From positions 1,694-65,693 of the forward strand of contig JAMOPG010000233.1 in assembly GCA_027064715.1 (NCBI GenBank): a stretch of 64,000 bases of DNA, given 5' to 3'. Of this stretch, positions 11,306-56,592 are shown one piece after another (position 1 is the first letter of the stretch; each line of letters opens with the position of its first letter). Below the pieces are notes generated by a model that saw only the letters and a program-made list of their open reading frames with translations, was not told the origin of the DNA and ran no database searches. Origin of the DNA: Desulfobacterales bacterium (GTDB lineage: Bacteria > Desulfobacterota > Desulfovibrionia > Desulfovibrionales > Desulfothermaceae). The position numbers and the translations under genes are program-made.

Positions 11306-11484
11306 AGGTAATTTTCCTCCTTAAAGAGTGTTTGCAAATCAGCTATTAGGAAATTATCTGTGACCACTCAATTTTTTTTCATACAAAGTTATGGGACTTA
11401 TCAATAACTAAGAAACTCATAATACAAACCAGCATGCAATTTTCGGAACTTTAGTTTGATAAATAAAATATATTGTTTCATTTT

Positions 11485-12927
11485 ATGAGATGTGCTGTAG
11501 TGGTACCACCTATAGAGGATTTTTATTACACTCCCCATAGGGGCAGTTTTTTAGGTGCTCATATTGTAGCAAGGATTTTGAAATCCTTGGGATATTTAGT
11601 TGATCTATATATATTTCCTAATACCAAAAAGCCCAGAATAATCCAAATACCAGATGAACTTAGGTACTTAAAAGATTTTATAATTGATGGTGAAGTAGGG
11701 CCTTTTTCTTATTTTACCACATACAAGAGATTTGGACCAGATTATAAAAAAGCAGCAGAACTTATTTTACTTAATTCTCCTGATTTAGTCTTTATTTCAT
11801 GTTTTGCATTTTGTTATACAAAATCCACTATAAGAGTTGCAGAAGAAATCACGAAAAAAGACAAAAATATTAAAATAATCGTTGGTGGTGCAGGTGTATC
11901 AGTATTCCCAGAATACTTTGAAAATACAGGGCTTTTTTACTCAGTTTTAACAAAAGAAGCTGAAATCGCCATACCTGAGTTTTTTGGAAGGGATGTCAGA
12001 TTTGATTTGATACCTTCGGTGGTAAACACAAAGAATACGAAAAGAGTTTCATATTTTTCTACTTATCTAACAAGGGGATGTCCAAAAAATTGCGGCTTTT
12101 GTTCTGTTGCATTGGTACATGGCAGAAAATTAAGGGAGGTGGATTCCAACCTATTGATGGATATCTTGCCTGATGAAGATAACTCAAAAATTTTTTTATT
12201 TAATTTTGAAGATGACAATGTCTTATTAAAAAAAGAGTCTTTTTTTGAGGTGTTGCAAAAGATCAAAAGTAGATATTCAAAAGTCCTATTTAGTTGTGAA
12301 AATGGCATTGATTATAGGGAATTAGACATAGATACCCTACAAACAATGATAAACTTGGGTTTTAGACAATTTAATTTATCAATCGTTAATGTAAATAAAA
12401 GGATATTATTGGAACAAAAAAGGACATTTTTAAGGGATAAATTTATTGAGCTAGTGGATTATTTAAAGGAACAAGATATTGAAACAATTGTGTATTTTAT
12501 TGCTGGATTTAGAGGTGAGTCTTGGAAAGATAGTATAAAAAATCTTATATTTTTAGCTCAGTTAGGAGAAAGAGTTAGGGTTGGTCTTTCTGTGTTTTAT
12601 CCTGTTCCTGGGATTTTGGGATTTGAAGAAAAAGGATTTTTTTTAGACAAAAGTCCCTATCTTTTATGCTCTTCTGCTGCATATCCATGGAACAATTCTT
12701 TAACAACACAAGATTTTATTACATTATTCAGGTTAGCTAGAGTAATAAATTTTTTAAAAAGACCTATTATAGAAAATGAATCTTATTATGTTGTAAAAAA
12801 AATCATAAGAGAAAAAAGACTCTACACATTTGTAAAAAATATTCCCTATCCTGTTGAAGTAAAAAATTATAATAGAGATATGGTCAAAGAGCTTTTTGAT
12901 AATTTGAAGATTACATTGAAGAAGTAG
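11485..12927 (+). CDS. B12-binding-domain radical SAM protein (class B-like), function unknown
   Basis: Radical SAM cluster motif CPKNCGFC (in YLTRGCPKNCGFCSV), preceded by a Rossmann-like N-terminal domain. The ORF is open from a TTG at 11473; the first ATG is at 11485. Confidence 0.75.
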   Translation: MRCAVVVPPIEDFYYTPHRGSFLGAHIVARILKSLGYLVDLYIFPNTKKPRIIQIPDELRYLKDFIIDGEVGPFSYFTTYKRFGPDYKKAAELILLNSPDLVFISCFAFCYTKSTIRVAEEITKKDKNIKIIVGGAGVSVFPEYFENTGLFYSVLTKEAEIAIPEFFGRDVRFDLIPSVVNTKNTKRVSYFSTYLTRGCPKNCGFCSVALVHGRKLREVDSNLLMDILPDEDNSKIFLFNFEDDNVLLKKESFFEVLQKIKSRYSKVLFSCENGIDYRELDIDTLQTMINLGFRQFNLSIVNVNKRILLEQKRTFLRDKFIELVDYLKEQDIETIVYFIAGFRGESWKDSIKNLIFLAQLGERVRVGLSVFYPVPGILGFEEKGFFLDKSPYLLCSSAAYPWNNSLTTQDFITLFRLARVINFLKRPIIENESYYVVKKIIREKRLYTFVKNIPYPVEVKNYNRDMVKELFDNLKITLKK

Positions 12928-24406: not shown

Positions 24407-26020
24407 TTAAACAGAAGATATTAACTTTGAAAGGCGATAATTTACCTCTAATATCTCTTCTCTAAGTTCTGATTGCACTACCCAATCTAATGCTGAAAGT
24501 CTTTCTTTTTTCTGGGTAAGGGCATCTAGTTTTTGTTTTATTTCATCAATTAAAAAATCCCAATCTATTGTTACTTCCTTGATCTTCTTTTCTTCTTCTT
24601 TTATCTCACTTGTGATCTTATCTGTAAGAATTTCTATTTCTTCCAGATAATCAGGTATATAAACTTCAAAGGGAAATTTTTCCTGGATCTTTTCTTTTAA
24701 AACTTTTTGAGATTTATACTCTCCATGTACAAGAAATATCTTCATGTTAGGATTTTTAAAATTTTCAAGCCACTGAAGGATCTGTCTTTGATCAGCATGT
24801 GCAGAGAATCCGTTAATGGTAAAGACCTTTGCATGGATCTCAACTTCTTCTCCAAATATCTTTACAACCTCTGCTCCATCTACAATTCTTCTTCCCAGGG
24901 TTCCCTGAGCCTGAAAGCCCACGAATACTATACTTGCTCCGCGTCTCCATAGATTGTGTTTTAAGTGGTGTTTAATCCTACCAGCATTTGCCATTCCACT
25001 AGCTGAGATTATTATAGCTGGTTCATTTAAGTTATTAAGCCTAATGGAATCTTCTGTAGAAAGAGAAAATTTGAGGTTTTGCAGTTTTAGAGGATTTTCT
25101 CCTTTTTTAAAGAGCTCCTTTGATTCTTCATCAAAATAACTGTGATATTTGTCAAATATCTTTGTGGCATTTATTGCAAGTGGGCTGTCAAGATAAACAG
25201 GTATAGACTCAGGTATCTTTTTCTTTTTAATAAGATAATAGAGGGCATATATAAGTTCCTGGGTCCTCTCCACTGCAAAGGCTGGTATTATAGTCTTTTC
25301 GTTGTTTTTATAACTATAATTTATTGCCTCAGCTAGTTCATCTAGAGTCTGTTCTTCATTTTTATGGAGTCTATTGCCATAGGTGGATTCTAAGAATAAA
25401 AAATCTGCATAATCTATCTTTGATGGATTTTTTACTATAAATTGGTTTGGTCTGCCTAAATCCCCAGAAAATACCACACTATATTTTTTGTCCTGCTCTG
25501 TTATTTTTGTCTCTATTATAGCTGATCCCAATATGTGGCCTGCATCATGTAATATAACCTCTAACCCCTTACACGGTGAAAACATTTGTCCATAATTTAT
25601 TGTGCGTATAAGTGGTATAGAATTGTCTGCATCTATTTCTGTATAAAGGGGTTCTAAAAGGGATTTTCCTTGTCTTTTTCTCTTTTTGTTCAACCATTCA
25701 ATTTCTGCTTGCTGAACATGGGCACTGTCTTTTAACATTATTGTTAATAGATCCATTGTGGGATGTGTGGTGTAGATTTCGCCTTTAAATCCCTCTTTTA
25801 CAAACTTTGGAATAAGTCCTGAATGGTCTATGTGTGCATGAGTTAATATAATAAATTCTATGTTTTTAATATCATATAAATCTGTAAGTCTATTTCTTTC
25901 TTCAATCTCTTTGTTTCCTTGATGCAGTCCACAGTCAATGCAAAATTTATGATTATTTAATTGGATCTGAAAACAGGAGCCAGTGACAGTCCTGGCTGCT
26001 CCTAAGAATTTTATCTTCAT
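24407..26020 (-). CDS. MBL-fold beta-CASP ribonuclease (CPSF/RNase J-like) with a C-terminal coiled-coil extension
   Basis: HAHIDHSG metallo-beta-lactamase motif, with downstream beta-CASP-type spacing. The last ~90 aa are charged and helical. Confidence 0.8.
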   Translation of the reverse strand: MKIKFLGAARTVTGSCFQIQLNNHKFCIDCGLHQGNKEIEERNRLTDLYDIKNIEFIILTHAHIDHSGLIPKFVKEGFKGEIYTTHPTMDLLTIMLKDSAHVQQAEIEWLNKKRKRQGKSLLEPLYTEIDADNSIPLIRTINYGQMFSPCKGLEVILHDAGHILGSAIIETKITEQDKKYSVVFSGDLGRPNQFIVKNPSKIDYADFLFLESTYGNRLHKNEEQTLDELAEAINYSYKNNEKTIIPAFAVERTQELIYALYYLIKKKKIPESIPVYLDSPLAINATKIFDKYHSYFDEESKELFKKGENPLKLQNLKFSLSTEDSIRLNNLNEPAIIISASGMANAGRIKHHLKHNLWRRGASIVFVGFQAQGTLGRRIVDGAEVVKIFGEEVEIHAKVFTINGFSAHADQRQILQWLENFKNPNMKIFLVHGEYKSQKVLKEKIQEKFPFEVYIPDYLEEIEILTDKITSEIKEEEKKIKEVTIDWDFLIDEIKQKLDALTQKKERLSALDWVVQSELREEILEVNYRLSKLISSV

Positions 26021-26283
26021 AACATCCCTTCCTTTAGTTTTTTATATGAAATTCTATAAAAAGACTTTAATAACTTGGTTATAATTTTGCAATATAAATT
26101 TTTATGATTTTTTAAAGTAGTGCAAGATAAAAACATTGACCCAAGATAAAGAAGTTGATTTAAAGATATGTCATTTTAAAAAAGGACACTCTTATTTTTC
26201 CTGAGGTAATGTGCTTTCTTTTAGATATGAAATAGGTTTTGAAGGTGTTAAATCTTTCAAAATTTAGTAGACAATACAAGTTA

Positions 26284-26799
26284 TTATTTATAATTGGATG
26301 CAATTTTTACATAGTGTTTTGCTGTGTTTATGATATTTTCAATCTCTTTTGTTTCAAGGTTCCTCTTTACTTTGGCTGGAATTCCAGCAACCAGTGTGCC
26401 TGATTTTACCTTCATACCAGGTGTTACAACAGAACCTCCAGCAACAATTGAGTGTTTTTCAATATGAGCTCCGTCCATAATTATGGCACCCATTCCAATG
26501 AGACATTCATCATCAATTGTGCATCCATGAACCACTGCTCTATGACCAATGGTGACCATATTGCCAATATGTAAAGGAAATTTCTCTGTGGTAACATGCA
26601 ATGTGCAGTGGTCCTGAATATTTGTCTTACTTCCTATTCTTATAAAATTTACATCTCCCCTTATTAAGGTATAAAACCATATACTTGAGAAATCTCCAAT
26701 AACAACATCCCCTATTACACAGGCATTGTGTGCAATAAATACATTTTTTCCAATAGTTGGATATTTGTTTTTATAATGCAAAATATTAGACACTTGCAT
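26284..26799 (-). CDS. Gamma-carbonic-anhydrase-like hexapeptide-repeat protein
   Basis: Left-handed beta-helix repeats, LIRGDVNFIRIGSKTNIQD and HGCTI, typical of the YrdA/PaaY family. Confidence 0.85.
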   Translation of the reverse strand: MQVSNILHYKNKYPTIGKNVFIAHNACVIGDVVIGDFSSIWFYTLIRGDVNFIRIGSKTNIQDHCTLHVTTEKFPLHIGNMVTIGHRAVVHGCTIDDECLIGMGAIIMDGAHIEKHSIVAGGSVVTPGMKVKSGTLVAGIPAKVKRNLETKEIENIINTAKHYVKIASNYK

Positions 26800-26936
26800 G
26801 GTTTTGTCATCTTGCTGGGTTTTATAGTTGCTGTTAAAAACAGTTGATTTATTTATATATTAAATTGGGCAGTGATGCAAGTTATAATGTAACATAAGTT
26901 GTGTAAAGTTGGATAAAGAGGAAAAAAGGATAGAAG

Positions 26937-26978
26937 AAGGAGAATTCACAGATGTGTATAGATCCATGAATTCTCCTT
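26937..26978. terminator. 12-bp hairpin downstream of the DUF1634-like gene
   Basis: AAGGAGAATTCA (26937-26948) pairs with TGAATTCTCCTT (26967-26978), 18-nt loop. The T-tract is stronger on the plus side, so the assignment is uncertain. Confidence 0.4.
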
Positions 26979-26991
26979 TTATATATTAAAA

Positions 26992-27408
26992 TTAATGTCC
27001 ACCACTTCCCAAAATTCCTGATGCAGCTAATAGTAACACCAATACTTCAACTGTTGCAATTGCAGTATACACTTTTTCACCTTCTTTTAAGTATGCTGGT
27101 ATCAAAGTTAGGTATCCAATTATTGTAAGTGCCCCTAGAATGGCAATTCCTATAAAATTTAAAAAATCTCCTTTCCCTAGCATTGTTATCCAAGTCCATC
27201 CAGGTTGAATATTTGTCTGTTTTAAGAATTCATCTACAGGAAGATGCCATAGGTGCTCAATGGTCTTTATTGGTATATAAGGATCCATAATACCAAAAAT
27301 ATATAATAGATATGTTATAATCATAAGTGCAATACTTCCCCAACTTCCCCAAAATAGTATTTCAGCATAAAGAAGCTGTTCTGGTCTTACTTTAACCTTA
27401 TTATTCAT
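26992..27408 (-). CDS. Small membrane protein (DUF1634-like partner of TauE/SafE)
   Basis: 138 aa with 3-4 TM segments, directly downstream of the TauE-like permease, as is common for DUF81/DUF1634 pairs. Confidence 0.55.
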   Translation of the reverse strand: MNNKVKVRPEQLLYAEILFWGSWGSIALMIITYLLYIFGIMDPYIPIKTIEHLWHLPVDEFLKQTNIQPGWTWITMLGKGDFLNFIGIAILGALTIIGYLTLIPAYLKEGEKVYTAIATVEVLVLLLAASGILGSGGH

Positions 27409-27438
27409 AATTATACCTCCAAAGATATATTTTATTTT

Positions 27439-28395
27439 TTAATGACCAAGACCCTTTAAAAGTGCTTTTCCCCCTGCAAATATAAGTACCCCTATTACCA
27501 GATAACGAATAAGGGCAGGTTTGGCCTTAGCAAGGATTTTTACTCCTACAATAGATCCCAGCATAAGCCCAATAATAGAGGGGATAGTAATAAGCGGAAT
27601 CACGCAACCTCTATTTAAATAAATCCAGGCAGCAGAGGTGTCTGTAATGGAGAGCAAAAACTTACTAGTTGCAACAGCGATCTTTAAAGGTACACCCATA
27701 ACTAGATTTAAAACAGGGAGATTTGCCCAACCAGCCCCGAGACCAAACATACCAGCCACTGTTCCTATAAAGATAAATAAAATAAGACCAGCAAGGGTAT
27801 TTTTGGTCTTCCACTCAATAATTTGTCCTGTAGACTCTTCTAAATAGCTACCATGTAACCCAAGGGCGAGACCAATGGCATCTTGTTTAGTTACCACAGG
27901 GTATTCCACATTTTTTGAAGTAAGTAATAATACTGCTATAAAGAGTATTGTAGCTCCAAGTAATATTTGGACAATGTTAGTAGGGAGGGATAAACCTAAA
28001 AACGCACCACCAATGGCAGATGTAGAAGCAATTAATGCAACAGGAAGGGCCAATCTTAGATTTGCTAGGTTTCGTTTAAGTAATCCTGGTCCAGCAGCTA
28101 ATGCTCCAGAAAGAGCAACAAAAAGGCCTGCTCCTCTCACAAAATCTAAATGAAATGGGAAAAAGGCTGAAACCAAGGGCACATATAAAACTCCTCCTCC
28201 CACACCTGCTAATACAGCAATTATACCTAATACAAAGCAGAAAATGAAAAGAATAGCTGGCCAAAACCACCAGGGCTTTGTTGCAGCTGCAGTTTTAGCA
28301 CTAGCAGTTTCTGCACAAAATCCATACTGAACTATAAAAAATAAAAACAACAAAATAAATAAGAGAATCATAGAGTTAACAAACCTATTTCTCAT
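27439..28395 (-). CDS. TauE/SafE (DUF81) family sulfite/anion exporter
   Basis: Glycine-rich repeated TM pattern (VLAGVGGGVLYVPL ... GMFGLGAGWANLPVL), typical of DUF81. Confidence 0.75.
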   Translation of the reverse strand: MRNRFVNSMILLFILLFLFFIVQYGFCAETASAKTAAATKPWWFWPAILFIFCFVLGIIAVLAGVGGGVLYVPLVSAFFPFHLDFVRGAGLFVALSGALAAGPGLLKRNLANLRLALPVALIASTSAIGGAFLGLSLPTNIVQILLGATILFIAVLLLTSKNVEYPVVTKQDAIGLALGLHGSYLEESTGQIIEWKTKNTLAGLILFIFIGTVAGMFGLGAGWANLPVLNLVMGVPLKIAVATSKFLLSITDTSAAWIYLNRGCVIPLITIPSIIGLMLGSIVGVKILAKAKPALIRYLVIGVLIFAGGKALLKGLGH

Positions 28396-28628
28396 AATCC
28401 TTTACCTCCTATTTTCAATTTTATTTTTTGTTATTTTTTTAACCATAAAGGCACTCTTTTTTGTGAAAAAAAGAACAATATTTTTTTAAAGCCTATAACT
28501 AGTTTTTTATATTCTGTCAACAAAAAAATATGTTTAAAAATGAAACAATTTATAAACAGTGTTTTAGATAGAAATAATAATTAAAAAATAAAAATCAGTG
28601 TTATTAAGTGTTATTAACTAAATAATAT

Positions 28629-30662
28629 CTATATTAAAACTAGATCCATTGTTTCTATGAGTTCTTTTATAAAGATAATTTTTAAGTCTTGAGTTAAGGA
28701 ATTTGGGATTGTAGTAAAGTCTGGCTCGTTTTTTTCTGGAAAGATTACAGTTTTTATACCAGCAAGTTTTGCTGCAAGTAATTTTTCTCTAATACCTCCC
28801 ACTGGTAACACTCTTCCTGACAAAGTAATCTCTCCTGTAAGTCCAATATCTCTTTTGCATTTTTTGCCTGTTATTAGGGAGATTAGAGATGCGAAGATGG
28901 GCACTCCAGCAGATGGTCCATCCTTTGGTATGGCACCTGCTGGGACGTGTATGTGTATATCGTGTGATTTAAAAAAATTATTATCAATATCAAATAGATG
29001 GGCATTGGACTTGATAAAACTAAGTGCTGCTTGAGCTGATTCTTTTAAGACATTGCCTAGAGATCCAGTTAAAATTAGTTTGTCTGATCCTGGCATTTTC
29101 GTTGATTCTATAAATAATATTTCACCGCCATATGGGGTCCATGCAAGGGCTGTTGCCACTCCAACTCTATCTTTTACATCTAATATAGTGGGCTTATATT
29201 TGGGCGGTCCAAGGAGATTTTCCACATCCTTTGATGTAATTTTTATATTTTTGTTTTCACCAAACTCTTTATTCACAATTTTTCTCGCAGTTTTTCTAAG
29301 TATAGAGGATACTTGCCTGTGTAGGTTCCTAAGCCCTGCTTCTTTTGTATATTCTTTTATAATCTTTTTTATTGCTTCGTGTTCAAATACTATATTGTAG
29401 TCTATTAAACCATTTTCTTTTATTTCTCTTGATATTAAGTGCCTTTTGCAAATTTCTATCTTTTCTTCTTCCAAGTATCCATGAACAGGTATTATCTCCA
29501 ATCGATCCAGAAGTGGAGCTGGGATTGTGTCAGTGGTATTTGCTGTTGCAATAAACATTACCTTTGAGAGATCAAAGGGTATATCCAAGTAATGGTCCAC
29601 AAAGTTTTTATTTTGGTGCGGATCTAAGATTTCAAGTAAAGGTGCAGAGGGATCGCCTTTAAAATCCTGTCCAATTTTATCTATTTCATCTAACATAAAC
29701 ACAGGATTTTTGGATCCAGCCCTTCTTATCTCCTGTATAATTCTACCTGGAAGAGCGCCTACATAACTCCTCCTATGCCCTCTAAGCTGGGCTTCGTCTT
29801 TTACACCAGCCAAAGAGATCATGATAAAGTTTCTATTCATACTTTTGGCAATTGCAGCTCCTAAAGATGTTTTTCCAGTTCCAGGAGGACCAACAAAACA
29901 TAAGATAGGTCCTTTTGATTCAAACTCAACTAGCTGATTCTCTAATGCATTTTCAACTGTGGATATGAGCTCATCGAGTTTGATTGGTTTTGATAAAAAA
30001 TGAAAAGATCCCTTTTTTAATGCCTCTACTGCGCTGGATACAGTGGCATAACCAGTGATAATAATAACTTCTGTTGAAGGACTTGCCTTTTTAGCAGCAT
30101 CAAGTACTGAGAGTCCATCAACCTCCTTCATTTTAAGATCAGTAATTATTAGATCAAAATTTATCTTGTTTATATAGTTTAATGCTTCTTCACCACTAAG
30201 TGCTCCATACACCTCATATTCCTTTTTCTCTAAAACATGCTTTATGTTCATGCATGTGAGCTTTTCATCATCCACAACTAAAATTTTAAATCTCTTTTGA
30301 GACTTTAAGATCCTTACAGCAAGGTGTTCCAAGATCCTGTCTTTAATTTCTTGAAGCCCATAATGATACATATCCAATATTTCAGCAGCCCTGTTTAAAT
30401 CAAGATTGTCTTTGGTTAAGGTATTCCAGGGGAGAGAGAGAAGATAATCTATATAATTTATCCCAATTGTGTATTCTGCAGAAGATTCAGAGACATATTT
30501 TATCCTGTCTAACTCCTTTAATGCAGCCTTTGCCACATAATCAGGAAGATCTTTTTCCATTATTTCCTTTCTGAGCTTAGAAAGTTCAGAGAAGCCTTCT
30601 TCCACTTCATTTGATTTTTTAACTGGTGCTTCTTTATTCTCTTTTTTATTAAAAAAGATCAT
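28629..30662 (-). CDS. lon: Atypical Lon protease: no LON N-domain, CheY-like receiver inserted before the AAA+ module
   Basis: Reading order: HYGLQEIKDRILEHLAV, then the receiver (FKILVVDDE...DLIITDLKM...IIITGYATVSSAVEALKKGSFHFLSKP), then Walker A GPILCFVGPPGTGKTS, Walker B FMLDEIDK, protease Ser PKDGPSAG and Lys GGIREKLLAA. The ORF is open to 30683, but GGAGG precedes the ATG at 30662. Confidence 0.85.
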   Translation of the reverse strand: MIFFNKKENKEAPVKKSNEVEEGFSELSKLRKEIMEKDLPDYVAKAALKELDRIKYVSESSAEYTIGINYIDYLLSLPWNTLTKDNLDLNRAAEILDMYHYGLQEIKDRILEHLAVRILKSQKRFKILVVDDEKLTCMNIKHVLEKKEYEVYGALSGEEALNYINKINFDLIITDLKMKEVDGLSVLDAAKKASPSTEVIIITGYATVSSAVEALKKGSFHFLSKPIKLDELISTVENALENQLVEFESKGPILCFVGPPGTGKTSLGAAIAKSMNRNFIMISLAGVKDEAQLRGHRRSYVGALPGRIIQEIRRAGSKNPVFMLDEIDKIGQDFKGDPSAPLLEILDPHQNKNFVDHYLDIPFDLSKVMFIATANTTDTIPAPLLDRLEIIPVHGYLEEEKIEICKRHLISREIKENGLIDYNIVFEHEAIKKIIKEYTKEAGLRNLHRQVSSILRKTARKIVNKEFGENKNIKITSKDVENLLGPPKYKPTILDVKDRVGVATALAWTPYGGEILFIESTKMPGSDKLILTGSLGNVLKESAQAALSFIKSNAHLFDIDNNFFKSHDIHIHVPAGAIPKDGPSAGVPIFASLISLITGKKCKRDIGLTGEITLSGRVLPVGGIREKLLAAKLAGIKTVIFPEKNEPDFTTIPNSLTQDLKIIFIKELIETMDLVLI

Positions 30663-30760
30663 TCTACCTCCAAAAAGTGTCATTGATGTCTCTTCTTTTT
30701 ATATTAAATTATAGAGCACCAAAAGTGAAGTATTTATTGTTGATTTTGTAATGTTTAAAG

Positions 30761-30789
30761 ATGCAACATTTATATTAAAACTGTTGCAT
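30761..30789. promoter_or_regulatory. Candidate enhancer (UAS) palindrome ATGCAACA-N13-TGTTGCAT
   Basis: Perfect 8-bp inverted repeat about 150-170 bp upstream of the sigma-54 promoter. Further TGTTG(C/T)(A/G) copies at 30796, 30853 and 30923. Confidence 0.45.
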
Positions 30790-30933
30790 TTTTATTGTTG
30801 CGTTGGTAACTATTTAAATTTAAATGATAAAATGGAATTTTAAAAATAATCATGTTGTATTTTGCAATAATATAATGTCTGTAAAATGTGGTGTTACAAT
30901 ATTATTTTTAATGAAAACAATATGTTGCAAATT

Positions 30934-30949
30934 TGGCACCTTGTTTGCT
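30934..30949 (+). promoter_or_regulatory. Sigma-54 (-24/-12) promoter
   Basis: TGGCAC-cttgt-TTGCT fits TGGCAC-N5-TTGCW with correct GG/GC spacing. It lies about 35 nt upstream of the ATG at 30984. Confidence 0.65.
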
Positions 30950-30983
30950 GATACAGTAGCAAAGAGAAAAAAGGGGGTATAAG

Positions 30984-31160
30984 ATGTTGAAAAAAGAAAA
31001 AGTTTTAAAAAAACTTGAAAGGATTATGGTAGCAGTGACCTTTGCAGAGGCAAATCTACATGAGGAGTCAGTAAATATCTTGAATGAAGATAAAGAGAAG
31101 AGGGTGGAAAAAGGGATAAGGATTGAGAAAAAACAGCAAAGGCCACAAATTAGATTGTAA
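30984..31160 (+). CDS. Unannotated 58-aa ORF (below the ORF-track cutoff)
   Basis: AAGGGGG RBS 6-7 nt upstream of the ATG. Translation is MLKKEKVLKKLERIMVAVTFAEANLHEESVNILNEDKEKRVEKGIRIEKKQQRPQIRL. It shares the AVxFAE..H motif with the next two genes. Confidence 0.5.
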   Translation: MLKKEKVLKKLERIMVAVTFAEANLHEESVNILNEDKEKRVEKGIRIEKKQQRPQIRL

Positions 31161-31191
31161 CATTTTGGTTTTGAGTAATAGGAGGTAAGAG

Positions 31192-31674
31192 ATGGGGAAG
31201 ATATTGGTGGTCAGTAATGGTATCTATCCTGATCTACAAAGTGTGAGTTATACAGTGGAGCTGGCCACCTCCTTAAACTCACAAGTAGAAATCTTAGAGG
31301 TTGTGCCAAAAGATCAAGGGATAGCTTTTTTAAACAGGAAAAAAAGTCTTTTGGGTGCTGTAAAGTCTTTGATGGAAGATGTGTATGTTGCTGTTGGTTT
31401 TGCAGAAGAAAATCAGCATGACATTGCCAAAGAGATTATAAATGAAGCAGTTATGAATCTTCATCCTTATATTACTAAGTTGAAGAATTGTGGAATCCAT
31501 GCACGTCTAGTGTTAAAAAGTGGTGAATTCTTAAAAGAGACAAAAGATTTTATAAGGAAAAATAAAGATATATTGATGGCAATTTTGGCTATTAAAAAGG
31601 ATAAAAAAAGCCAATTTTATCTTGATAGGTTGAAAAAAGAAGTAGACATACCAATTATAATGGTTGGAACTTAA
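31192..31674 (+). CDS. Universal-stress-protein-like (degenerate USP fold) protein
   Basis: AGGAGG RBS. A USP-like start (KILVVSNG...ELATSLNSQVEILEVV) and end (DIPIIMVG), but no clear G-2x-G-9x-G(S/T) ATP motif. Confidence 0.5.
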   Translation: MGKILVVSNGIYPDLQSVSYTVELATSLNSQVEILEVVPKDQGIAFLNRKKSLLGAVKSLMEDVYVAVGFAEENQHDIAKEIINEAVMNLHPYITKLKNCGIHARLVLKSGEFLKETKDFIRKNKDILMAILAIKKDKKSQFYLDRLKKEVDIPIIMVGT

Positions 31675-31697
31675 TAATTTTTAAAAGGAGGTTAGGT

Positions 31698-32252
31698 ATG
31701 GGGCTTTTTGATATATTCAAGAAAAAGGCAAATGAGGCAAAAGAAGAGATAATTAAATACCAGGAGGCAGTTGCATTTGCTGAGGAAGGAGAACATGGCG
31801 AAGCGAAACGGCGTATGAAAAAAGATACTTCTTTAGGTGATGTAAAGTCCATTTTATTAGTTGTGGGTAATGGCAATTCTTTTGGAAAAGATGTGATTGA
31901 ATATTCTATAGAGATGGCAAAAAAGTTTAATTATAAAATTGTTGCTCTAAATGCGGCTCCGATTGGTGATGATTTACCTGTAAAAAGTAATGAAAGGAGA
32001 AAACTTAGAGAAGAATTTATGGAAAAATGTAACTTATCAGCAGAAAATTTTAGAGATCTTGCTGAAAAACAAGGAATAGAGCTTGAACATGTAGTGAAGT
32101 TTTTGAACAAAGATGATGCTCTAGAAGAGATCAAAAGAGAGATACCAGGGATTGAATTTGTTATATCAGATAAAGAAAGAGATTTTGTACCATGTACATC
32201 GGAAAATAGGGCAAGTAAGAGACCATCTGTATGTGTTTATTCAATGGTATAA
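31698..32252 (+). CDS. USP-like protein with an N-terminal helical extension
   Basis: AGGAGG RBS. SILLVVGNGNSFGKDVIEYSIEMAKKFNYKIVALN resembles the first USP strand-helix-strand. The N-terminal extension carries AVAFAEEGEH. Confidence 0.5.
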   Translation: MGLFDIFKKKANEAKEEIIKYQEAVAFAEEGEHGEAKRRMKKDTSLGDVKSILLVVGNGNSFGKDVIEYSIEMAKKFNYKIVALNAAPIGDDLPVKSNERRKLREEFMEKCNLSAENFRDLAEKQGIELEHVVKFLNKDDALEEIKREIPGIEFVISDKERDFVPCTSENRASKRPSVCVYSMV

Positions 32253-32279
32253 AAAAGGGCCTGAGATTGGCCCTTTTTT
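32252..32279 (+). terminator. Rho-independent terminator
   Basis: AAAAAGGGCC - tgagatt - GGCCCTTTTT, directly after the stop at 32250-32252. Confidence 0.7.
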
Positions 32280-32309
32280 ATAATTTGGTTAAGGAGGTGA
32301 CATAGGAAA

Positions 32310-32402
32310 ATGGATATGGCATTTTATTTAAAAATTTTACTTGTTATAGTAACTTTTGGTATTTGTTTTTTGTTTAAGGAAGAAAATAAAAAAAGCAAAT
32401 AA
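32310..32402 (+). CDS. Candidate 30-aa hydrophobic peptide ORF
   Basis: AAGGAGGTG upstream. Translation is MDMAFYLKILLVIVTFGICFLFKEENKKSK (one TM segment plus a charged tail). It is bracketed by two terminator-like hairpins. Confidence 0.3.
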   Translation: MDMAFYLKILLVIVTFGICFLFKEENKKSK

Positions 32403-32446
32403 TTATCTTATGGGTAGGACGCCTTAATCCTTTTGTTTTTCTCAAA

Positions 32447-32477
32447 CCCTCTCTTAAAAAAGAGGGGATTTTTTTAT
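32447..32477 (+). terminator. Terminator-like hairpin
   Basis: CCCTCT (32447-32452) pairs with AGAGGG (32461-32466), followed by GATTTTTTT. Confidence 0.55.
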
Positions 32478-32516
32478 CTAATGTTCAAATTATTCTAGTT
32501 GAAAGGGGAGGATAGT

Positions 32517-34331
32517 ATGACGCAGGACATGCTCCTTACAATGATTGTTTTAGGATTTGTTATTTTCCTGTTTGTATCTGAATGGGTAAGGGTAGATGTA
32601 GTGGGAATTATGATGATGGTGCTTTTACCACTTATGGGGTTAGTCACTCCATATGAAGCATTTTCTGGTTTAAGTTCCAATGCAGTTGTTTCAATTATTG
32701 CGGTAATTATAATTGGTGCAGGACTTGATAAAACTGGTGTTATGAATAAGGTTGCCAGTCCAATAATAAAACTGGCAGGCAACAACGAAAAGAGAATTAT
32801 AACCCTGATATCTGGTACAGTAGGAATTATCTCATCCATGATGCAAAATATTGGAGCAGCAGCACTATTTTTGCCAGCAGCTCAAAGAATAGCAAAAAGG
32901 ACCGGAGTTCCAGTATCTAGAATACTCATGCCCATGGGTTTCTGTGCAATAATTGGAGGTACCATAACTTTGGTAGGTGCAAGTCCAACCATTTTACTAA
33001 ATGATCTAATGGTCTTAAATGGACAAAAATTAAAACCTTTTGGGCTTTTTACTCAAACTCCAATTGGTATCTGTCTATTGGCAACTGCAATTATCTATTT
33101 CTCCTTTTTTGGCAAGTATGTACTCCCAGCACGAGAGGGACAGGCCGAAAAAGGGATATCTGATTTATTGATGGAAGCATATAGAGGGCTTGAAAGTGTT
33201 TTTGAGTTAGAAGTTCCTGAAGACTTTGGTAAGGCAAAGACATTGGAAGAGCTGGCAATTCGAGAGCGCTTTTTAGTGACAGTTGTGGGAATCTATTCAA
33301 ATAAAAGGAAATACAAGACTTTGGTGCCAAGATCTTCTGATACAATACAGGGCGGAGATGTCATAGCAGTTGTTGGAGCAAAGAAAAATGTAGAACTACT
33401 GACAAGAGAATTAAATTTAGTATTAAAGCCACAGTTAGAGGTCTTTGCTGAAGATCTAGCAAGGACAAATGCAGGACTTGCTGAGACCATAGTTTCACCA
33501 AGGTCAGAGTTAATTGGTAAGACCTTAAGCGAAGTTAAATTTAAGGAATTATTTGGTGTAAATCCTGTGGCCTTGTTCAAGGGAAACAAGATCTTTTACG
33601 CTGGACTTACAAATATTAGACTAAGCATGGGAGATACCCTTTTGCTCTTTGGCCCCTGGGAAAAGTTTCATATTTTAAAAAATAGGCCACAACCTAGACC
33701 ACTTAGTTTTGCATCACCATTAGAAGGAGAAATTTTAAAACCTCAAAAGGCAAAATGGGCTGTGTTTTGGCTGGCACTTGCACTTTTTCAAATTATCTTT
33801 TTTAAGGTAAGGTTGTCTGTGGCACTTATGTCTGGAGCCCTTGGAATGATCTTGACTGGTGTCCTTACAGTGGATGAGGCGTATCAGTCCGTTGACTGGA
33901 TGACAGTATTTTTACTTGGAGGACTTATTCCCTTGGGTATTGCATTTGAAAAGACAGGAACAGCGTCTTTTATTGCCCATAAGATTTTAGAAGTAATTGG
34001 AAAGCCTTCACCAATTGTCCTTCTTACAGTAGTGGCAGTCCTAACATCATTTTTTACACTTGTCATATCCAATGTGGGTGCAACAGTACTTCTGGTACCC
34101 TTATGTATGAATATGGCTGTAATGGCAGGAGCAGATCCAAGAATGGCTGCCCTTGTAGTGGCTCTTTCTGCTTCAAATACCTTTGTGTTACCCACTCATC
34201 AGGTGAATGCACTTATTATGAGACCTGGTGGTTATAGGACTGTTGATTATGCAAAGGCTGGAAGTATAATGACGGTCTTGTTCCTTGTTGTGGAATTGTC
34301 TGTCTTATATTTCTTTTATGGAATCCAATAA
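32517..34331 (+). CDS. SLC13/DASS-family anion transporter with two central TrkA-C (RCK_C) domains
   Basis: Polytopic N- and C-terminal halves flank a soluble region with two RCK_C-like repeats (GKTLEELAIRERFLVTVVGI ... GDVIAVVG and GKTLSEVKFKELFGVNPVAL ... GDTLLLFG). GGAGG precedes the ATG at 32517; the ORF is open from a TTG at 32499. Confidence 0.85.
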   Translation: MTQDMLLTMIVLGFVIFLFVSEWVRVDVVGIMMMVLLPLMGLVTPYEAFSGLSSNAVVSIIAVIIIGAGLDKTGVMNKVASPIIKLAGNNEKRIITLISGTVGIISSMMQNIGAAALFLPAAQRIAKRTGVPVSRILMPMGFCAIIGGTITLVGASPTILLNDLMVLNGQKLKPFGLFTQTPIGICLLATAIIYFSFFGKYVLPAREGQAEKGISDLLMEAYRGLESVFELEVPEDFGKAKTLEELAIRERFLVTVVGIYSNKRKYKTLVPRSSDTIQGGDVIAVVGAKKNVELLTRELNLVLKPQLEVFAEDLARTNAGLAETIVSPRSELIGKTLSEVKFKELFGVNPVALFKGNKIFYAGLTNIRLSMGDTLLLFGPWEKFHILKNRPQPRPLSFASPLEGEILKPQKAKWAVFWLALALFQIIFFKVRLSVALMSGALGMILTGVLTVDEAYQSVDWMTVFLLGGLIPLGIAFEKTGTASFIAHKILEVIGKPSPIVLLTVVAVLTSFFTLVISNVGATVLLVPLCMNMAVMAGADPRMAALVVALSASNTFVLPTHQVNALIMRPGGYRTVDYAKAGSIMTVLFLVVELSVLYFFYGIQ

Positions 34332-34386
34332 TCAACCCAGTCTTGCTGTTGGTAGAAAATGATAAGTATAAAAGGAGGAGGGATAA

Positions 34387-34485
34387 ATGGCAATAATAAC
34401 TATCTCCAGAGAAAGTTATAGTTTTGGAAAAATAGTTGCTGAAAAAATAGATGCATATCAGGCTGCAAATCCAGTATCATCTTAG
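34387..34485 (+). pseudogene. 32-aa stub resembling the N-terminus of cytidylate-kinase-like family proteins
   Basis: MAIITISRESYSFGKIVAEKI resembles the MxIITISRExGSGGxxIAxxL start of that family, with the P-loop glycines lost. It terminates after 32 codons. Confidence 0.3.
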
Positions 34486-34606
34486 TTAGACAAGACTATT
34501 GAACAATAGTATATTAGATGATATGAAAATTGAATTTTGTAATAAATTAAAACAAATATCCTATGTAACAGACATTTATATTCATTTATGGGAGTGATAA
34601 ATTCCT

Positions 34607-36019
34607 ATGTTAAGAATTAGTCTTAGAAATAAAATTTTAATTACATTTTTTATACTTTTTGTTATTTCTTTCTTTATCTGTTTTTATGGATTTTATAACT
34701 ATAATAAATTGAACTATAAAATAGCAGTATTAGAAAAAAAGACAACTTTACTAAACTATATACTTGAAGCCAGAAGGCATGAAAAGAATTTTTTTATAAC
34801 TCGTGATAAGGTTTATTTAAAAACTGCGCTGGAATTTTTAAGAAAATCAGATTCATTAATTAATACTATACTAAAAGAGTATAAAGAATACATGGAGTTT
34901 CACAATTTTGATATAGTACAACAAATACTGTTAGAATATGAAAATGCCATTAAATCTCTCCAGCAAAAAGTTGAGGCAGGGTATAGCGTTGATTTAAAAG
35001 AAGCGGAATATGTAAGACAAAAGGGACACATTATAACAACAAAACTGGAGGAAGCAATAAACAAGGAAAAGGGAGCCATACGCATTCTTATTGAAAAGTC
35101 CAGGGATTATCTATTCTTGAGTGTGTTTTCAATGATTGGTGCAACAATAATTGTTTTGATCTTTTTGATCATAAATGTCATCTGTCCCTTGAAAGAGATT
35201 GAGGATGCAATAAAGAAGATTAGTACAGGTGATTATGAATTAATTCCAGATATTAAATCAGGAGATGAATTTGAAAGGCTGGCTGAAAGGCTAAATACCC
35301 TTTTATCTGATATAAAAAGGAGAAATGAACAACTTGTACAAAGTGAGAAGATGGCAGCTTTGGGTACATTGACTTCTGGAGTGGCACATGAGCTCAATAA
35401 TCCTTTGAACAACATATCTACCTCTCTTCAGATTGTTCTTGAAGAAATTGATGAAGGGGATATAGAATATCAAAAAGAGCTTTTGAGGGAGGCCTTGAAA
35501 CAGGTTGATAGGGCACAAGATATAGTTAAAAGTTTACTGGAGTTCTCAAGAGAGACTGAATTTAGCGTAAGTGAAGAAAATTTACGTCAGTTGGTAAATA
35601 ATACATTAAAATTAATTCAAGGAGAATTACCAGCCAATGTCTATGTTGATGTAGATATCCCTGATCACATCACTGCAAAAGTGGATCCCAGACGCATACA
35701 ACAGGTTTTTTTAAATCTGTTGTTAAATGCAATACAGGCCATGGAAAAAACAGGTGGACATATATATGTGAGGGCTAGAAGAGATGAAGAACAAAAAGGG
35801 GTGGTAATAGAGGTTGAAGATACTGGACCAGGGATCCCTGAAGAGATAATAGGAAAGATATTTGATCCTTTTTTTACTACAAAGGAAGTAGGAAAGGGAT
35901 CAGGGCTTGGTTTATCTGTTTCACAGGGTATAATTAGCCAACATGGAGGGACAATATCTGTCTGGAGTAAGGTTGGGGTAGGCACAAAATTCACCATATT
36001 TTTGCCAGATAAAAAATAG
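34607..36019 (+). CDS. Sensor histidine kinase (2 TM, HAMP, HisKA, HATPase_c)
   Basis: H-box SGVAHELNNPLNNI, an N-box-like region LLLNAIQAM, G-boxes DTGPGI and GSGLGLSV, and a HAMP region around CPLKEIEDAIKKISTGDYE. Confidence 0.88.
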   Translation: MLRISLRNKILITFFILFVISFFICFYGFYNYNKLNYKIAVLEKKTTLLNYILEARRHEKNFFITRDKVYLKTALEFLRKSDSLINTILKEYKEYMEFHNFDIVQQILLEYENAIKSLQQKVEAGYSVDLKEAEYVRQKGHIITTKLEEAINKEKGAIRILIEKSRDYLFLSVFSMIGATIIVLIFLIINVICPLKEIEDAIKKISTGDYELIPDIKSGDEFERLAERLNTLLSDIKRRNEQLVQSEKMAALGTLTSGVAHELNNPLNNISTSLQIVLEEIDEGDIEYQKELLREALKQVDRAQDIVKSLLEFSRETEFSVSEENLRQLVNNTLKLIQGELPANVYVDVDIPDHITAKVDPRRIQQVFLNLLLNAIQAMEKTGGHIYVRARRDEEQKGVVIEVEDTGPGIPEEIIGKIFDPFFTTKEVGKGSGLGLSVSQGIISQHGGTISVWSKVGVGTKFTIFLPDKK

Positions 36020-36034
36020 AGGTTTGTTAAAATC

Positions 36035-37393
36035 ATGGAAAATAGAGAGTTTGAGATTTTAGTTGTGGAAGACGAAGAAATTGCCAGGAAAAATCTGGAG
36101 AGGATTTTGATTAAAGAAGGTTACAGGGTAACAAGTGTGCCCAGCGGATATGAAGCAATAGATAAATTGAAGGAACAGGAGTTTGACCTTGTTGTTACAG
36201 ATCTGAAGATGGAAGGCATTGATGGAATGGAAGTGCTTAGATATGTAAAAGAGAATTTTCCACATACTGAAGTTATAATGATTACAGGTTATGCCACTGT
36301 GGATTCTGCTGTGGAGGCCATGAAAAGTGGGGCATTTCACTATATAGCCAAGCCTTACAAATTGAATGAAGTTAGGATGATAGTAAAACAAGCCCTTTCT
36401 AAAAGAGAGCTTCAGCTTGAAAATATTAAGTTAAAAGAAAAATTGTCTAACAATAAGAGTTCAGTGGTTTTAATTGGAAAGTCAAAGCCTTTTTTATCTG
36501 CACTGGATACAGCAAAACAAGTGGCTCCCACAGATGCAAATGTGTTGATCTTAGGGGAATCAGGTACAGGCAAGGAACTTGTTGCAAAATATATACATCA
36601 GATGAGCAAACGGGCAAAAAATAATTTTATTGCCTTTAATTGTGGTGCGCTTACAGAAGAATTGATGGCAAATGAGCTATTTGGGCATGAAAAAGGGGCA
36701 TATACTGGTGCTGATTCAGTAAAAAAAGGACTACTTGAAGTGGCACATGGTGGAACCCTTTTTTTAGATGAAGTGGGGGATATGCCCTTATCTATGCAGG
36801 TGAAGCTGCTTCGTGCAATTCAAGAAAGGGAAATATTAAGGGTTGGAGGAACAACTCCTATTAAGGTAGATGTGAGATTCATTGCTGCAACACATAGAAA
36901 CCTTCAAAAAGAGGTGGAAGAAGGAAATTTCAGACAGGATTTGTACTATAGATTAAACGTCGTGACCATAAAGCTTCCACCTTTGAGCGAACGAAAAGAA
37001 GATATTCCTTTACTGGTTAATCACTTTATACGCCAAAAATCTAAGGAAATGGAAAAGAATGTAAAAAATATTACAAAACAGGCAATGGATGTATTATTAA
37101 AATATTCATGGCCTGGAAATGTAAGGGAATTAGAAAATGTAATAGAACGAGCAGTGGCTTTGGCTCAAGGTGATGTTATAGATGTGGATCTACTCCCAGA
37201 CTATGTGCAGATGTATGAGGTTCATACCTTTAGAAGGGATGATTCTGACATCCCTACACTTGAGGAGATAGAGAGGGATTATATATTATGGGTATTAAAA
37301 AAATGCGGTGGCAATAAATCCCAGGCTGCAAAGATAATGGGTATTGATAGAGTCTCGTTGTGGCGTAAGTTGAAAAAGTGGATTAATAAGTAG
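36035..37393 (+). CDS. Sigma-54-dependent response regulator (NtrC family: REC-AAA+-HTH)
   Basis: Receiver ILVVEDE...VVTDLKM...KP. Walker A GESGTGKE, GAFTGA-loop variant GHEKGAYTGA, Walker B LFLDEVGDM. Fis-type HTH at the C-terminus (GNKSQAAKIMGIDRVSLWRKLKK). Confidence 0.92.
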   Translation: MENREFEILVVEDEEIARKNLERILIKEGYRVTSVPSGYEAIDKLKEQEFDLVVTDLKMEGIDGMEVLRYVKENFPHTEVIMITGYATVDSAVEAMKSGAFHYIAKPYKLNEVRMIVKQALSKRELQLENIKLKEKLSNNKSSVVLIGKSKPFLSALDTAKQVAPTDANVLILGESGTGKELVAKYIHQMSKRAKNNFIAFNCGALTEELMANELFGHEKGAYTGADSVKKGLLEVAHGGTLFLDEVGDMPLSMQVKLLRAIQEREILRVGGTTPIKVDVRFIAATHRNLQKEVEEGNFRQDLYYRLNVVTIKLPPLSERKEDIPLLVNHFIRQKSKEMEKNVKNITKQAMDVLLKYSWPGNVRELENVIERAVALAQGDVIDVDLLPDYVQMYEVHTFRRDDSDIPTLEEIERDYILWVLKKCGGNKSQAAKIMGIDRVSLWRKLKKWINK

Positions 37394-37395
37394 GA

Positions 37396-38703
37396 TTATA
37401 CGGGTTTTTCCATTAAGTTATAAATTATTTCTCCCAAAAATCTCACTTTCATATCTAATTCATAAAATTGTACAATATCTTCAAGTCCACTATGACAATT
37501 ATGGCAGGGTGCAATTACAATCTTAGCCCCAGTCTTTTTTAGTTGTTCTGCCTTTACTTTATTGCCTTTTACCCTTTTTTCTTTATATATTGGGCCACAA
37601 TTAATAACACCACCCCCTGCTCCACAACAGATATTGTGCTCTTTATTTGGATACATTTCTATTATGTTTTCACACAAATAAGACACAACCTCTCTAAGCA
37701 GGTTATGAAGTCCTCTGCCTCTAGATATATTACATGGATCATGAATCGTAACAGGCTCTTTTATTTTTTCTCTTATTTTTATTTTGCCTCTTTTTAATAG
37801 ATAAGCTAAAAATTCTACAGCATGTATAACCTTTATTGGATAATATTTCCATCCCAACTGTCTATTGATTGTATCGTACACGGACCTAAATGCATGTCCA
37901 CATTCACACATTACAATATAATTACATTTTAGTTTCAAAGCTGCTTCAAAATGAGAACGTTTTAATTGTTGAGAAATTGTATCATCCCTTACATACATTG
38001 CCATGTCACTGTTATCCCAGCCTGGTTGAGATGACATTGTCCAATTTACTTTTGCAATATTAAATATGCTGGACATATAATAAATCAACTCTGGGCTAAA
38101 TTTGGGTTCAGGTGCAATGACAGAGTACATAAAATCTGCACCAACCTTATCTATTGGGATTTCTCCCCAGGGAAATTCCCCTCTTAATTCTTCTTCCTGC
38201 CATTTTAGGGTATCTACCCATTCATCATCCTTTACCCACATTTGATTAAAAAAGGCAGCATGGGAATTTACAGTGTCTTGAATATATTGGGGAACCATCC
38301 CAATTAAACAACAAATCCTTCTTACTACAGACATCAAATAAGCAGTATCTATCCCCATAGGGCAATACAGAACACATCTTTTACAAAGAGTGCATTCAGT
38401 AAAGGCAATTTCAGCTATTTTTGCCATCTCAATTGGTGTTATTTCACCATTTTTCTTTATTATTTTTTTTAAGGTATTTTTTACCTTCCCCACAGGGGAA
38501 TAGTAGGGATCAAAGTTGTGGGATATACAAAAATGACACGCATTAAAACACATGCCACAGTTAATACATGATGATAGATAGAATTTTAATCTACTGCCGT
38601 TCTCTTTATTCAGCACCTGATCAACAGCATTTTTGATATCTTGAGTAGATATTTGTTGGCTAACTTTAATCAGATGACTATCTGTTATTTCAATGGATTC
38701 CAT
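37396..38703 (-). CDS. HdrD/DsrK-like iron-sulfur protein with CCG domains
   Basis: Two ferredoxin-type cluster motifs (CINCGMCFNAC, CTLCKRCVLYCP) and CCG-type cysteine motifs (HDPCN, CCGAGGG, PCHNCH). AGGAG precedes the ATG at 38703; the ORF is open to 38757. Confidence 0.8.
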   Translation of the reverse strand: MESIEITDSHLIKVSQQISTQDIKNAVDQVLNKENGSRLKFYLSSCINCGMCFNACHFCISHNFDPYYSPVGKVKNTLKKIIKKNGEITPIEMAKIAEIAFTECTLCKRCVLYCPMGIDTAYLMSVVRRICCLIGMVPQYIQDTVNSHAAFFNQMWVKDDEWVDTLKWQEEELRGEFPWGEIPIDKVGADFMYSVIAPEPKFSPELIYYMSSIFNIAKVNWTMSSQPGWDNSDMAMYVRDDTISQQLKRSHFEAALKLKCNYIVMCECGHAFRSVYDTINRQLGWKYYPIKVIHAVEFLAYLLKRGKIKIREKIKEPVTIHDPCNISRGRGLHNLLREVVSYLCENIIEMYPNKEHNICCGAGGGVINCGPIYKEKRVKGNKVKAEQLKKTGAKIVIAPCHNCHSGLEDIVQFYELDMKVRFLGEIIYNLMEKPV

Positions 38704-38740
38704 AATAGAAACTCCTATATTTTGAGATAGTTGAATTATT

Positions 38741-39412
38741 TTACCAATCATAGACATTTCTTATTCGTCCAAATTCAGATCCTATATATCCTCTTAAGAT
38801 TGGTGCAAAAATTATATGTGATAATTTGGTAATGGGTATTAAAATAATTAGAAGCTCACTTAACAATATGTGAGTGCAAATAAAAAATTTATAATTAATG
38901 AATTGATGGTAAGAAACAAAACCTGTAAAAAGTACTAAGAAGCACAAACATATCAAAAAATAATCTTGAAAAGTACTTATATATCTTATTTTTTTGTCTA
39001 TTATTCTTCTTATAAAAAGATAAGCAGCAGAAATCAAACCCACAACTGTGAATATATCTGATATAGTTTCTGATAATGTAAAATAACTTATTCCCCATGA
39101 CATTCGTATTAGTATTACATGTGCTGTTAAAAAGATTGGTATAAGAAAAATAGATATGTGAAATAGGATAGTAGCTATTGTGAAGGGAATATTTTGTCGC
39201 CAACTTTTTGCTAAAAAAAGAATATTCCATGCAACAATAGATCTAAATGCATAACCTATATGATAATACCTCAATACTTCTGGATCTTTATTTTTAGATA
39301 GAAAGAAAAAATATAAAATTTTTATAATAAATCCTATAATTAATATGCTAAATGATATCCATGCCATAGGACCTATTAAAAAGCTATAAATGATGTTCAT
39401 AACAGTCTCCAT
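38741..39412 (-). CDS. DsrM/NarI-like integral membrane (heme b-type) subunit
   Basis: 223 aa with about 5-6 TM segments and conserved-looking histidines in TM helices (LFHISIF, TAHVIL, CTHILL, KLSHII). It is coupled to the HdrD/DsrK-like gene. Confidence 0.6.
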   Translation of the reverse strand: METVMNIIYSFLIGPMAWISFSILIIGFIIKILYFFFLSKNKDPEVLRYYHIGYAFRSIVAWNILFLAKSWRQNIPFTIATILFHISIFLIPIFLTAHVILIRMSWGISYFTLSETISDIFTVVGLISAAYLFIRRIIDKKIRYISTFQDYFLICLCFLVLFTGFVSYHQFINYKFFICTHILLSELLIILIPITKLSHIIFAPILRGYIGSEFGRIRNVYDW

Positions 39413-56576: not shown

Positions 56577-56592
56577 TGGCACATAATCTGCA
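56577..56592 (+). promoter_or_regulatory. Sigma-54-like -24/-12 motif with no obvious cognate gene
   Basis: TGGCAC-ataat-CTGCA with correct GG/GC spacing. The nearest downstream gene is uvrB, about 190 nt away. Confidence 0.3.

Follow-up and report, generated by a model that had tools for sequence, protein, structure and literature searches.

A predicted sigma-54 control region in an AT-rich Desulfothermaceae-like genome corresponds to that of the DVU3305 regulon of Desulfovibrio vulgaris

Introduction

A 300-bp spacer (positions 30684-30983 of the window, by which we mean the whole 64,000-nucleotide stretch of DNA analyzed here) separates lon-REC, which encodes a fusion of Lon protease and receiver domain, from a divergent series of genes for small proteins. 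A sequence-only reading had placed a -24/-12 promoter in this spacer, had taken a perfect inverted repeat farther upstream for its enhancer, had named a kinase and a sigma-54 activator encoded downstream as the likely regulators, and had considered an influence on lon-REC as well. Which element drives the operon, through which sites and with which regulator are the questions addressed below. That the regulon is already known from another organism was missed in that reading.

The general architecture is that of the classical NtrB/NtrC system at glnAp2, where a phosphorylated activator with REC, AAA+ and Fis-type HTH domains occupies inverted-repeat sites that lie as a pair some 100-200 bp upstream and reaches the sigma-54 holoenzyme on a GG-N10-GC promoter through DNA looping. 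The locus described here shares with it the paired upstream inverted-repeat sites, the GG-N10-GC promoter, and an activator of the REC/AAA+/HTH type that would act by looping. It differs in recognition sequence, sensed signal and regulated genes, and there is no exact match to the IHF consensus WATCAANNNNTTR in the spacer between its activator sites and its promoter.

A much closer precedent comes from Desulfovibrio vulgaris Hildenborough, where the kinase DVU3304, the regulator DVU3305, and the Lon-protease response regulator DVU3303 were described as a "three-component system for general stress responses" (Rajeev 2011, PMC3333781). The divergent DVU3302-3298 operon specifies membrane proteins and hypothetical proteins, of which some contain UspA domains, and orthologs elsewhere still have the Lon partner as well as the binding site (Rajeev 2011, PMC3333781). 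In gel-shift assays (EMSA) from the same study, DVU3305 shifted TGTTGC-GATAT-GCAACA (substrate AAAGCCTCGTGTTGCGATATGCAACACGAGGCCAC), while substrates with mutated half-sites were unshifted; Tables S7 and S9 of that work contain 34 sites of the form GTTGC-N5-GCAAC. DVU3305, a sigma-54 response regulator, is assigned to "general stress response, transmembrane transport", and its targets include DVU3302-DVU3298, with a sigma-54 promoter, and DVU3303-DVU3305, without one (Kazakov 2015, PMC4641369). The genes DVU3303-3305 show pairwise cofitness >0.9, and the chlorate phenotype of the system is tied to the anion transporter DVU3299 (Trotter 2023, PMC10102598).

Results

A -24/-12 promoter conserved among diverged lineages

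The features of the locus are collected in Table 1. The promoter match, TGGCACcttgtTTGCT, shows zero mismatches to TGGCAC-N5-TTGCW. It consists of TGGCAC (30934-30939), the spacer cttgt (30940-30944) and TTGCT (30945-30949), so placed that exactly 10 nt lie between the GG (30935-30936) and the GC (30947-30948). Across the whole 64 kb window the exact pattern is found once, with an expectation of 0.04. When one mismatch is allowed, the window holds four sigma-54-like matches where 1.7 are expected, a difference that is not significant. The ATG of the first operon gene lies 35 nt past the -12 element and 36 nt past the GC, following a ribosome-binding site, AAGGGGG, at 30971-30977; transcription would be expected to start near 30959-30961.

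Table 1. Coordinates of features at the locus (positions in the window).
Feature	Position	Strand	Remarks
Lon protease fused to receiver domain (lon-REC), counterpart of DVU3303	28629-30683	-	Pfam
Distal activator site GTTTA-aagat-GCAAC	30753-30767		rank 3 in window, 10.7 bits
Palindrome ATGCAACA-N13-TGTTGCAT	30761-30789		two half-sites facing outwards
Possible extra site with 4-bp spacer, GTTGC-gttg-GTAAC	30797-30810		one mismatch in half-site scan
Proximal activator site GTTGT-atttt-GCAAT	30854-30868		rank 1 in window, 12.0 bits
Sigma-54 (-24/-12) promoter TGGCAC-cttgt-TTGCT	30934-30949	+	sole exact match in window; position kept in nine lineages
First operon gene, 58-aa protein	30984-31160	+	VAVTFAEAN motif; 57-63 aa in eight lineages
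160-aa protein	31192-31674	+	central VAVGFAEEN motif; no Pfam family
p184, 184-aa protein	31698-32252	+	N-terminal AVAFAEEGE motif; USP-like domain
Terminator-like hairpin directly 3' of the p184 gene	32248-32282	+	probably a partial stop
30-aa single-helix membrane peptide, MDMAFYLKILLVIVTFGICFLFKEENKKSK	32310-32402	+	kept in all nine lineages
CitMHS/DASS-type anion transporter with TrkA_C domains, counterpart of DVU3299	32517-34331	+	Pfam
32-codon ORF MAIITISRESYSFGKIVAEKIDAYQAANPVSS	34388-34486	+	resembles N-terminal remnant of a cytidylate-kinase-like gene
HAMP/HisKA/HATPase sensor histidine kinase, counterpart of DVU3304	34607-36019	+	Pfam
NtrC-family sigma-54 activator (REC, AAA+, HTH_8), counterpart of DVU3305	36035-37393	+

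Syntenic loci were found through homologs of the 160-aa and 184-aa proteins. The search with the former returned three matches, and the latter proved the better handle; a 6-sequence alignment was used for the locus scan, one of 16 sequences being too diverse. Loci L003 and L004 come from near-identical strains and L001 and L002 from relatives with about 69% protein identity. The remainder are L010, L012 and L013 from hydrothermal-vent metagenomes; L016, which is Desulfothermus okinawensis JCM 13304 (Desulfothermaceae, Desulfovibrionales); L005 and L006, at 46% GC; L007-L009 and L014, from a Desulfohalobiaceae MAG; L015, a Deltaproteobacteria MAG with 57% GC; and L017, a Desulfobacterales MAG. 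Wherever the contig is long enough, the cluster keeps the genes for the 58-aa, ~160-aa and ~170-184-aa proteins, the transporter and the sigma-54 activator; the kinase gene is usually present and a cytidylate-kinase-like gene sometimes. A divergent lon-REC gene precedes the cluster in most loci and is apparently absent in L015.

Promoters from nine lineages, spanning 34-57% GC, were compared after anchoring on the GG (Table 2). In all nine the element lies 31-47 nt ahead of the ATG of the first gene. Seven diverged lineages have at most one mismatch to the 11-base consensus: the match is exact in L001, L002 and L015 despite differing spacers, and there is a single mismatch in L005, L012, L016 and L017. 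The exception is the L007/L014 lineage, where the -12 element is defective and its GC missing. Spacer and flanks diverge while the -24 and -12 elements persist, which is a signature of selection. The promoter proposed from sequence alone is thus borne out in both position and sequence, and all coordinates given for the spacer in that reading were found correct when the sequence was rechecked.

Table 2. Promoter elements of the compared lineages.
Locus	-24 element	Spacer	-12 element
Window	TGGCAC	cttgt	TTGCT
L001 and L002	TGGCAC	tttca	TTGCT
L012	TGGCAT	ctaag	TTGCT
L016	TGGCAT	caatg	TTGCT
L005	TGGCAC	acttt	CTGCT
L015	TGGCAC	gtgcc	TTGCT
L017	TGGTAC	gctaa	TTGCT
L007	TGGCAC	agtat	ATGAT

A scan with sigma-70 and terminator consensus patterns gave promoter-like matches at chance level (27 found, 25 expected). 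No protein with an RpoN box is encoded in the 64 kb window.

Paired activator sites upstream of the promoter

A k-mer count made without any prior motif on the upstream regions of five lineages found words that all or most of them share: TTGCAA eight times (0.98 expected), TGCAAC eight times (1.06 expected), and GCAACA/TGTTGC nine times (1.19 expected). The most enriched shared k-mers were TTGCAA, TTGCAAC and TGCAACA, and TGGCAC was listed too. Laid out against the promoter, the enriched k-mers resolve into the conserved upstream unit, a 15-bp inverted repeat GTTGC-N5-GCAAC, of which GTTGCatttcGCAAC in L015, GTTGCatattGCAAT in L017, GTTGCtttttGCAAT in L001 and GTTGTattttGCAAT in the window are examples. 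The core 5-mer GTTGC/GCAAC occurs four times in the 300-bp spacer, where 0.49 occurrences are expected (Poisson P = 0.0016). A single copy of the longer TGTTGCA means little, because this heptamer is common throughout the window (33 copies found, 10 expected).

A scoring matrix was built solely from the 34 published DVU3305-family sites and run over the ~64,000 positions of the window. Its first- and third-ranked matches, the proximal and distal sites of Table 1, both fall inside the 300-bp spacer; if position alone decided, two of the top three would land there with a chance of roughly 7e-5, a rough estimate. Both are weak, against a published median of 18.9 bits (range 8.4-23.8), and with two half-site mismatches each they are more degenerate than the sites of D. 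vulgaris. The proximal site is centered 74 nt 5' of the GG, or about -98 from the expected start. The distal site is centered 175 nt 5' of the GG (about -199), a point 77 nt ahead of the start codon of lon-REC; the block GTTTAAA..TG(C/T)AACAT of this site is kept in L001/L002.

The other eight lineages each have a proximal and a distal site, 85-101 bp apart, within the five best matrix matches of their locus. Across all nine, proximal sites are centered 65-88 nt and distal sites 157-176 nt 5' of the GG. Taking promoter and sites together, we regard the predicted sigma-54 promoter with upstream activator sites as real, judging from sequence conservation.

The enhancer unit singled out by the sequence-only reading was a different one, the perfect inverted repeat formed by ATGCAACA (30761-30768) and TGTTGCAT (30782-30789) with 13 nt between them, and under that proposal one activator dimer would bind across both arms. 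Its perfect 8-nt arms do contain the correct half-site core, the half-site centers are 20 bp apart and thus, at about two helical turns, on the same face of the DNA, and the left arm lies within the distal matrix match, where it supplies the right half of that site. The half-sites, however, face outward (GCAAC...GTTGC), opposite to the validated GTTGC-N5-GCAAC, and the right arm, with its GTTGC at 30783, has no partner at 5-nt spacing. Among the lineages compared, the window and its near-identical strains L003 and L004 are alone in having the palindrome; L001/L002 lack the right arm. Perfect inverted repeats with 8-nt arms and spacers of 0-20 nt number 100 in this AT-rich window, 36 of them with at least three G/C per arm, so the N13 palindrome alone is weak evidence. 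We consider it improbable that this repeat is the enhancer. The reading had been right that a TGTTGCA-type sequence matters, as it is a half-site of the activator site, and the further TGTTG(C/T)(A/G) copies that it listed at 30796, 30853 and 30923 are all present, but the wrong unit was chosen: the best site, at 30854-30868, had been noted merely as an extra half-site, and the other, at 30753-30767, holds the left arm of the palindrome.

Two further candidates lie between the distal site and the promoter. The sequence at 30797-30810 resembles GTTGCATTGGTAAC, a variant with a 4-bp spacer reported for DVU3305 at DVU0369, and is not conserved in L001/L002. TGTTGCAA at 30923-30930, abutting the -24 element, was tried as a third site and rejected; L001/L002 keep no more of it than TGTT, and the half-site that pairs with it best is the GCAC of the promoter itself.

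As a separate observation, six lineages carry a GTTGC-N5-GCAAC site scoring 12.6-20 bits over codons 1-6 of the small first ORF, 3' of the expected start of transcription (L001 1296-1310, L002 9882-9896, L012 275-289, L016 7287-7301, L005 7095-7109 and L007 7301-7315). The counterpart in the window, GTTGAAAAAAGAAAA at 30986-31000, is degenerate, with three mismatches. In L007 the encoded peptide begins MFQIAT rather than MLQKET, yet the palindrome is still kept, which suggests selection on the DNA.

The linked kinase and activator

Pfam matches confirm a sensor kinase and a sigma-54 activator in the neighborhood (Sigma54_activat, E = 5e-73 for the activator), and these are the likely regulators, as had been proposed. 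The activator loop reads GAYTGA instead of GAFTGA, a conservative variant (DVU3305 has GAFSGA); an F-to-Y change in this loop is tolerated. The related variants GAYTDA and GAYTGS were accepted by Kazakov 2015 (PMC4641369). Activators of the syntenic loci are 61-67% identical to that of the window, and their C-terminal helix-turn-helix, GNK(S/T)xAAKxMGIDRVSLWRKLK, is nearly invariant.

A sigma-54 promoter could in principle be driven mainly by, or shared with, an activator encoded elsewhere in the genome. In D. vulgaris, the DVU3302/3303 region was also recovered in pull-downs with DVU2394, with no recognizable motif (Rajeev 2011, PMC3333781), and DVU3305 itself has extra targets. Against such an arrangement, the neighboring activator gene is the only one of its kind found in the window and is linked to the operon on every long contig, in all lineages, and the sites fit the validated motif of that activator's own family; we hold a remote activator to be very improbable. 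Least credible of all is that the -24/-12 match arose by chance and an ordinary sigma-70 promoter transcribes the operon. In favor of this are the weak sigma-70-like hexamer pairs of the AT-rich spacer and the chance-level frequency of one-mismatch sigma-54-like matches in the window; against it are the low expectation for the exact match, an element whose distance from the ATG is kept in nine lineages over a wide GC range while its flanks diverged, a sigma-54 activator gene that is always linked, and the listing of D. vulgaris DVU3302-3298 with a sigma-54 promoter (Kazakov 2015, PMC4641369).

A variant arrangement is seen in L007, L008, L009 and L014. The linked activator there (10725-12044) has 439 aa and lacks a receiver domain, and no kinase gene is present. 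In these L007-type loci the -12 element is degraded to ATGAT, yet both enhancer sites score 15-16 bits.

The divergent lon-REC gene

The lon-REC product, with its Response_reg, AAA, Lon_lid and Lon_C domains, is encoded divergently from the promoter. In a looser sigma-54 scan, no minus-strand match facing lon-REC had fewer than three mismatches, and ahead of the transporter gene there is no sigma-54 site at two or fewer mismatches. Neither gene has a canonical sigma-54 promoter of its own. That the same regulator also acts on lon-REC, as the earlier reading had considered, is plausible by analogy, DVU3305 being known to bind the equivalent shared spacer of D. vulgaris. From the distal site, the regulator may affect lon-REC through a promoter that is not of the sigma-54 type.

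Conserved blocks lie just upstream of lon-REC at 30705-30740, where TAAATTATAGA and AAAAGTGAAG(T/C)ATTTATTG are common to the window and L001/L002. The reverse complement of TAAATTATAGA contains TATAAT, and AAAAGTGAAGT from this upstream region also occurs in D. okinawensis. These blocks may represent a sigma-70 promoter or an operator of lon-REC.

Operon genes, hairpins and the transporter

The 58-aa ORF is taken to be a real gene because its length and sequence are kept in eight lineages and the third codon position takes up most of the substitutions (9, 6 and 25 differences from L001 at the first, second and third). Pfam has no family for the 58-aa and 160-aa proteins. The Usp match of p184 is weak (E = 0.0015); its core, residues 50-160, is modeled by AlphaFold2 with pLDDT of about 90, and its top fold matches in the PDB are all universal stress proteins (USP).

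Between the p184 and transporter genes sits an unannotated gene for a 30-aa peptide with a strong ribosome-binding site; the peptide may serve the transporter as a small accessory subunit. All long loci have the transporter gene in syntenic position; its start was set from a 604-aa gene call in L003. Whether these two genes belong to the same transcript is made uncertain by the terminator-like hairpin that follows the p184 gene. The T-run of that hairpin ends some 10 nt from the next ribosome-binding site, a gap into which no promoter fits, so expression of peptide and transporter by read-through would be the most likely route. We rate read-through at slightly better than even odds; it would fit the single DVU3302-3298 operon of D. 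vulgaris.

A second terminator-like hairpin with a T-run, at 32448-32467, precedes the start of the transporter gene by about 50 nt. L001/L002, L013 and L016 have a hairpin at the same position with differing stem sequences, and the element may attenuate expression of the transporter. An Rfam scan of 26000-39000 at a relaxed threshold returned sub-threshold chance matches, with no known leader or small RNA among them.

A cytidylate-kinase-like gene is intact (283-300 aa) in the interval between transporter and kinase in L005, L015 and L017. In the window, unlike these relatives, it appears to be cut to the short ORF given in Table 1.

Discussion

On gene order and motif, which are the grounds for calling it orthologous, the locus is the counterpart of the DVU3298-DVU3305 regulon. 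It shares with the D. vulgaris regulon the set of regulatory proteins (a receiver-domain Lon protease, a sensor kinase and a sigma-54 activator of the REC/AAA+/HTH type), the divergent spacer ahead of a sigma-54 operon for small hypothetical and USP-type proteins and an anion transporter, and two GTTGC-N5-GCAAC activator sites in that shared spacer. It differs in that kinase and activator genes are co-transcribed with lon in D. vulgaris, whereas here they follow the transporter on the operon strand, and in its host, an AT-rich Desulfothermus relative (Desulfothermaceae); the window has a GC content of 34%. We therefore read the spacer as the control region of a DVU3305-type regulon, and assign a probability of about 0.85 to promoter, enhancer and cognate activator taken together.

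By this reading, sigma-54 RNA polymerase would form a closed complex on TGGCAC-N5-TTGCT. The kinase would phosphorylate the NtrC-family regulator, whose dimers would occupy the proximal and distal sites, at about -98 and -199; a larger activator complex may assemble with the help of the extra half-sites at 30783 and 30797-30810. The AT-rich DNA between sites and promoter would loop, and the activator ATPase would open the promoter. The transcript, from about 30960, would cover the genes for the 58-aa, 160-aa and USP-like 184-aa proteins, and would probably run past a leaky hairpin to include the genes for the peptide and the transporter.

With this locus, a regulon mapped experimentally in Desulfovibrio is extended to a Desulfothermaceae-like lineage that is thermophilic and AT-rich. 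Since promoter, recognition motif and the two-site layout of the enhancer hold across widely differing GC contents, annotation transfer should be reliable. No new regulatory principle is added.

The fresher leads are in the cargo, conserved and uncharacterized: the micro-peptide and three proteins that share a motif. A segment (V/A)A(V/x)xFAE(A/E)(G/N) occurs in all three operon proteins (encoded at about 31029-31055, 31387-31413 and 31764-31790) and is invariant in their homologs from every lineage examined. A full-text literature search on this FAE motif returned nothing relevant. One could propose that the promoter drives an unstudied protein module instead of generic stress proteins, and that the phosphorylation-activated Lon-REC protease controls the transporter by way of these proteins as its partners or substrates, with sigma-54 transcription and proteolysis coupled; we think this unlikely. 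If it were true, one kinase would govern both sigma-54 transcription and regulated proteolysis. In profile comparison, the motif segments of the 160-aa protein and p184 were linked with 90% probability.

Elsewhere in the window, a second sigma-54-like element, TGGCACataatCTGCA, was noted at 56577-56592 (plus strand), with one mismatch to the consensus. The element falls some 190 nt ahead of the ATG of uvrB, within the 576 bp that separate this gene from one for an oligopeptide permease, and could be the promoter of a small RNA or a chance match.
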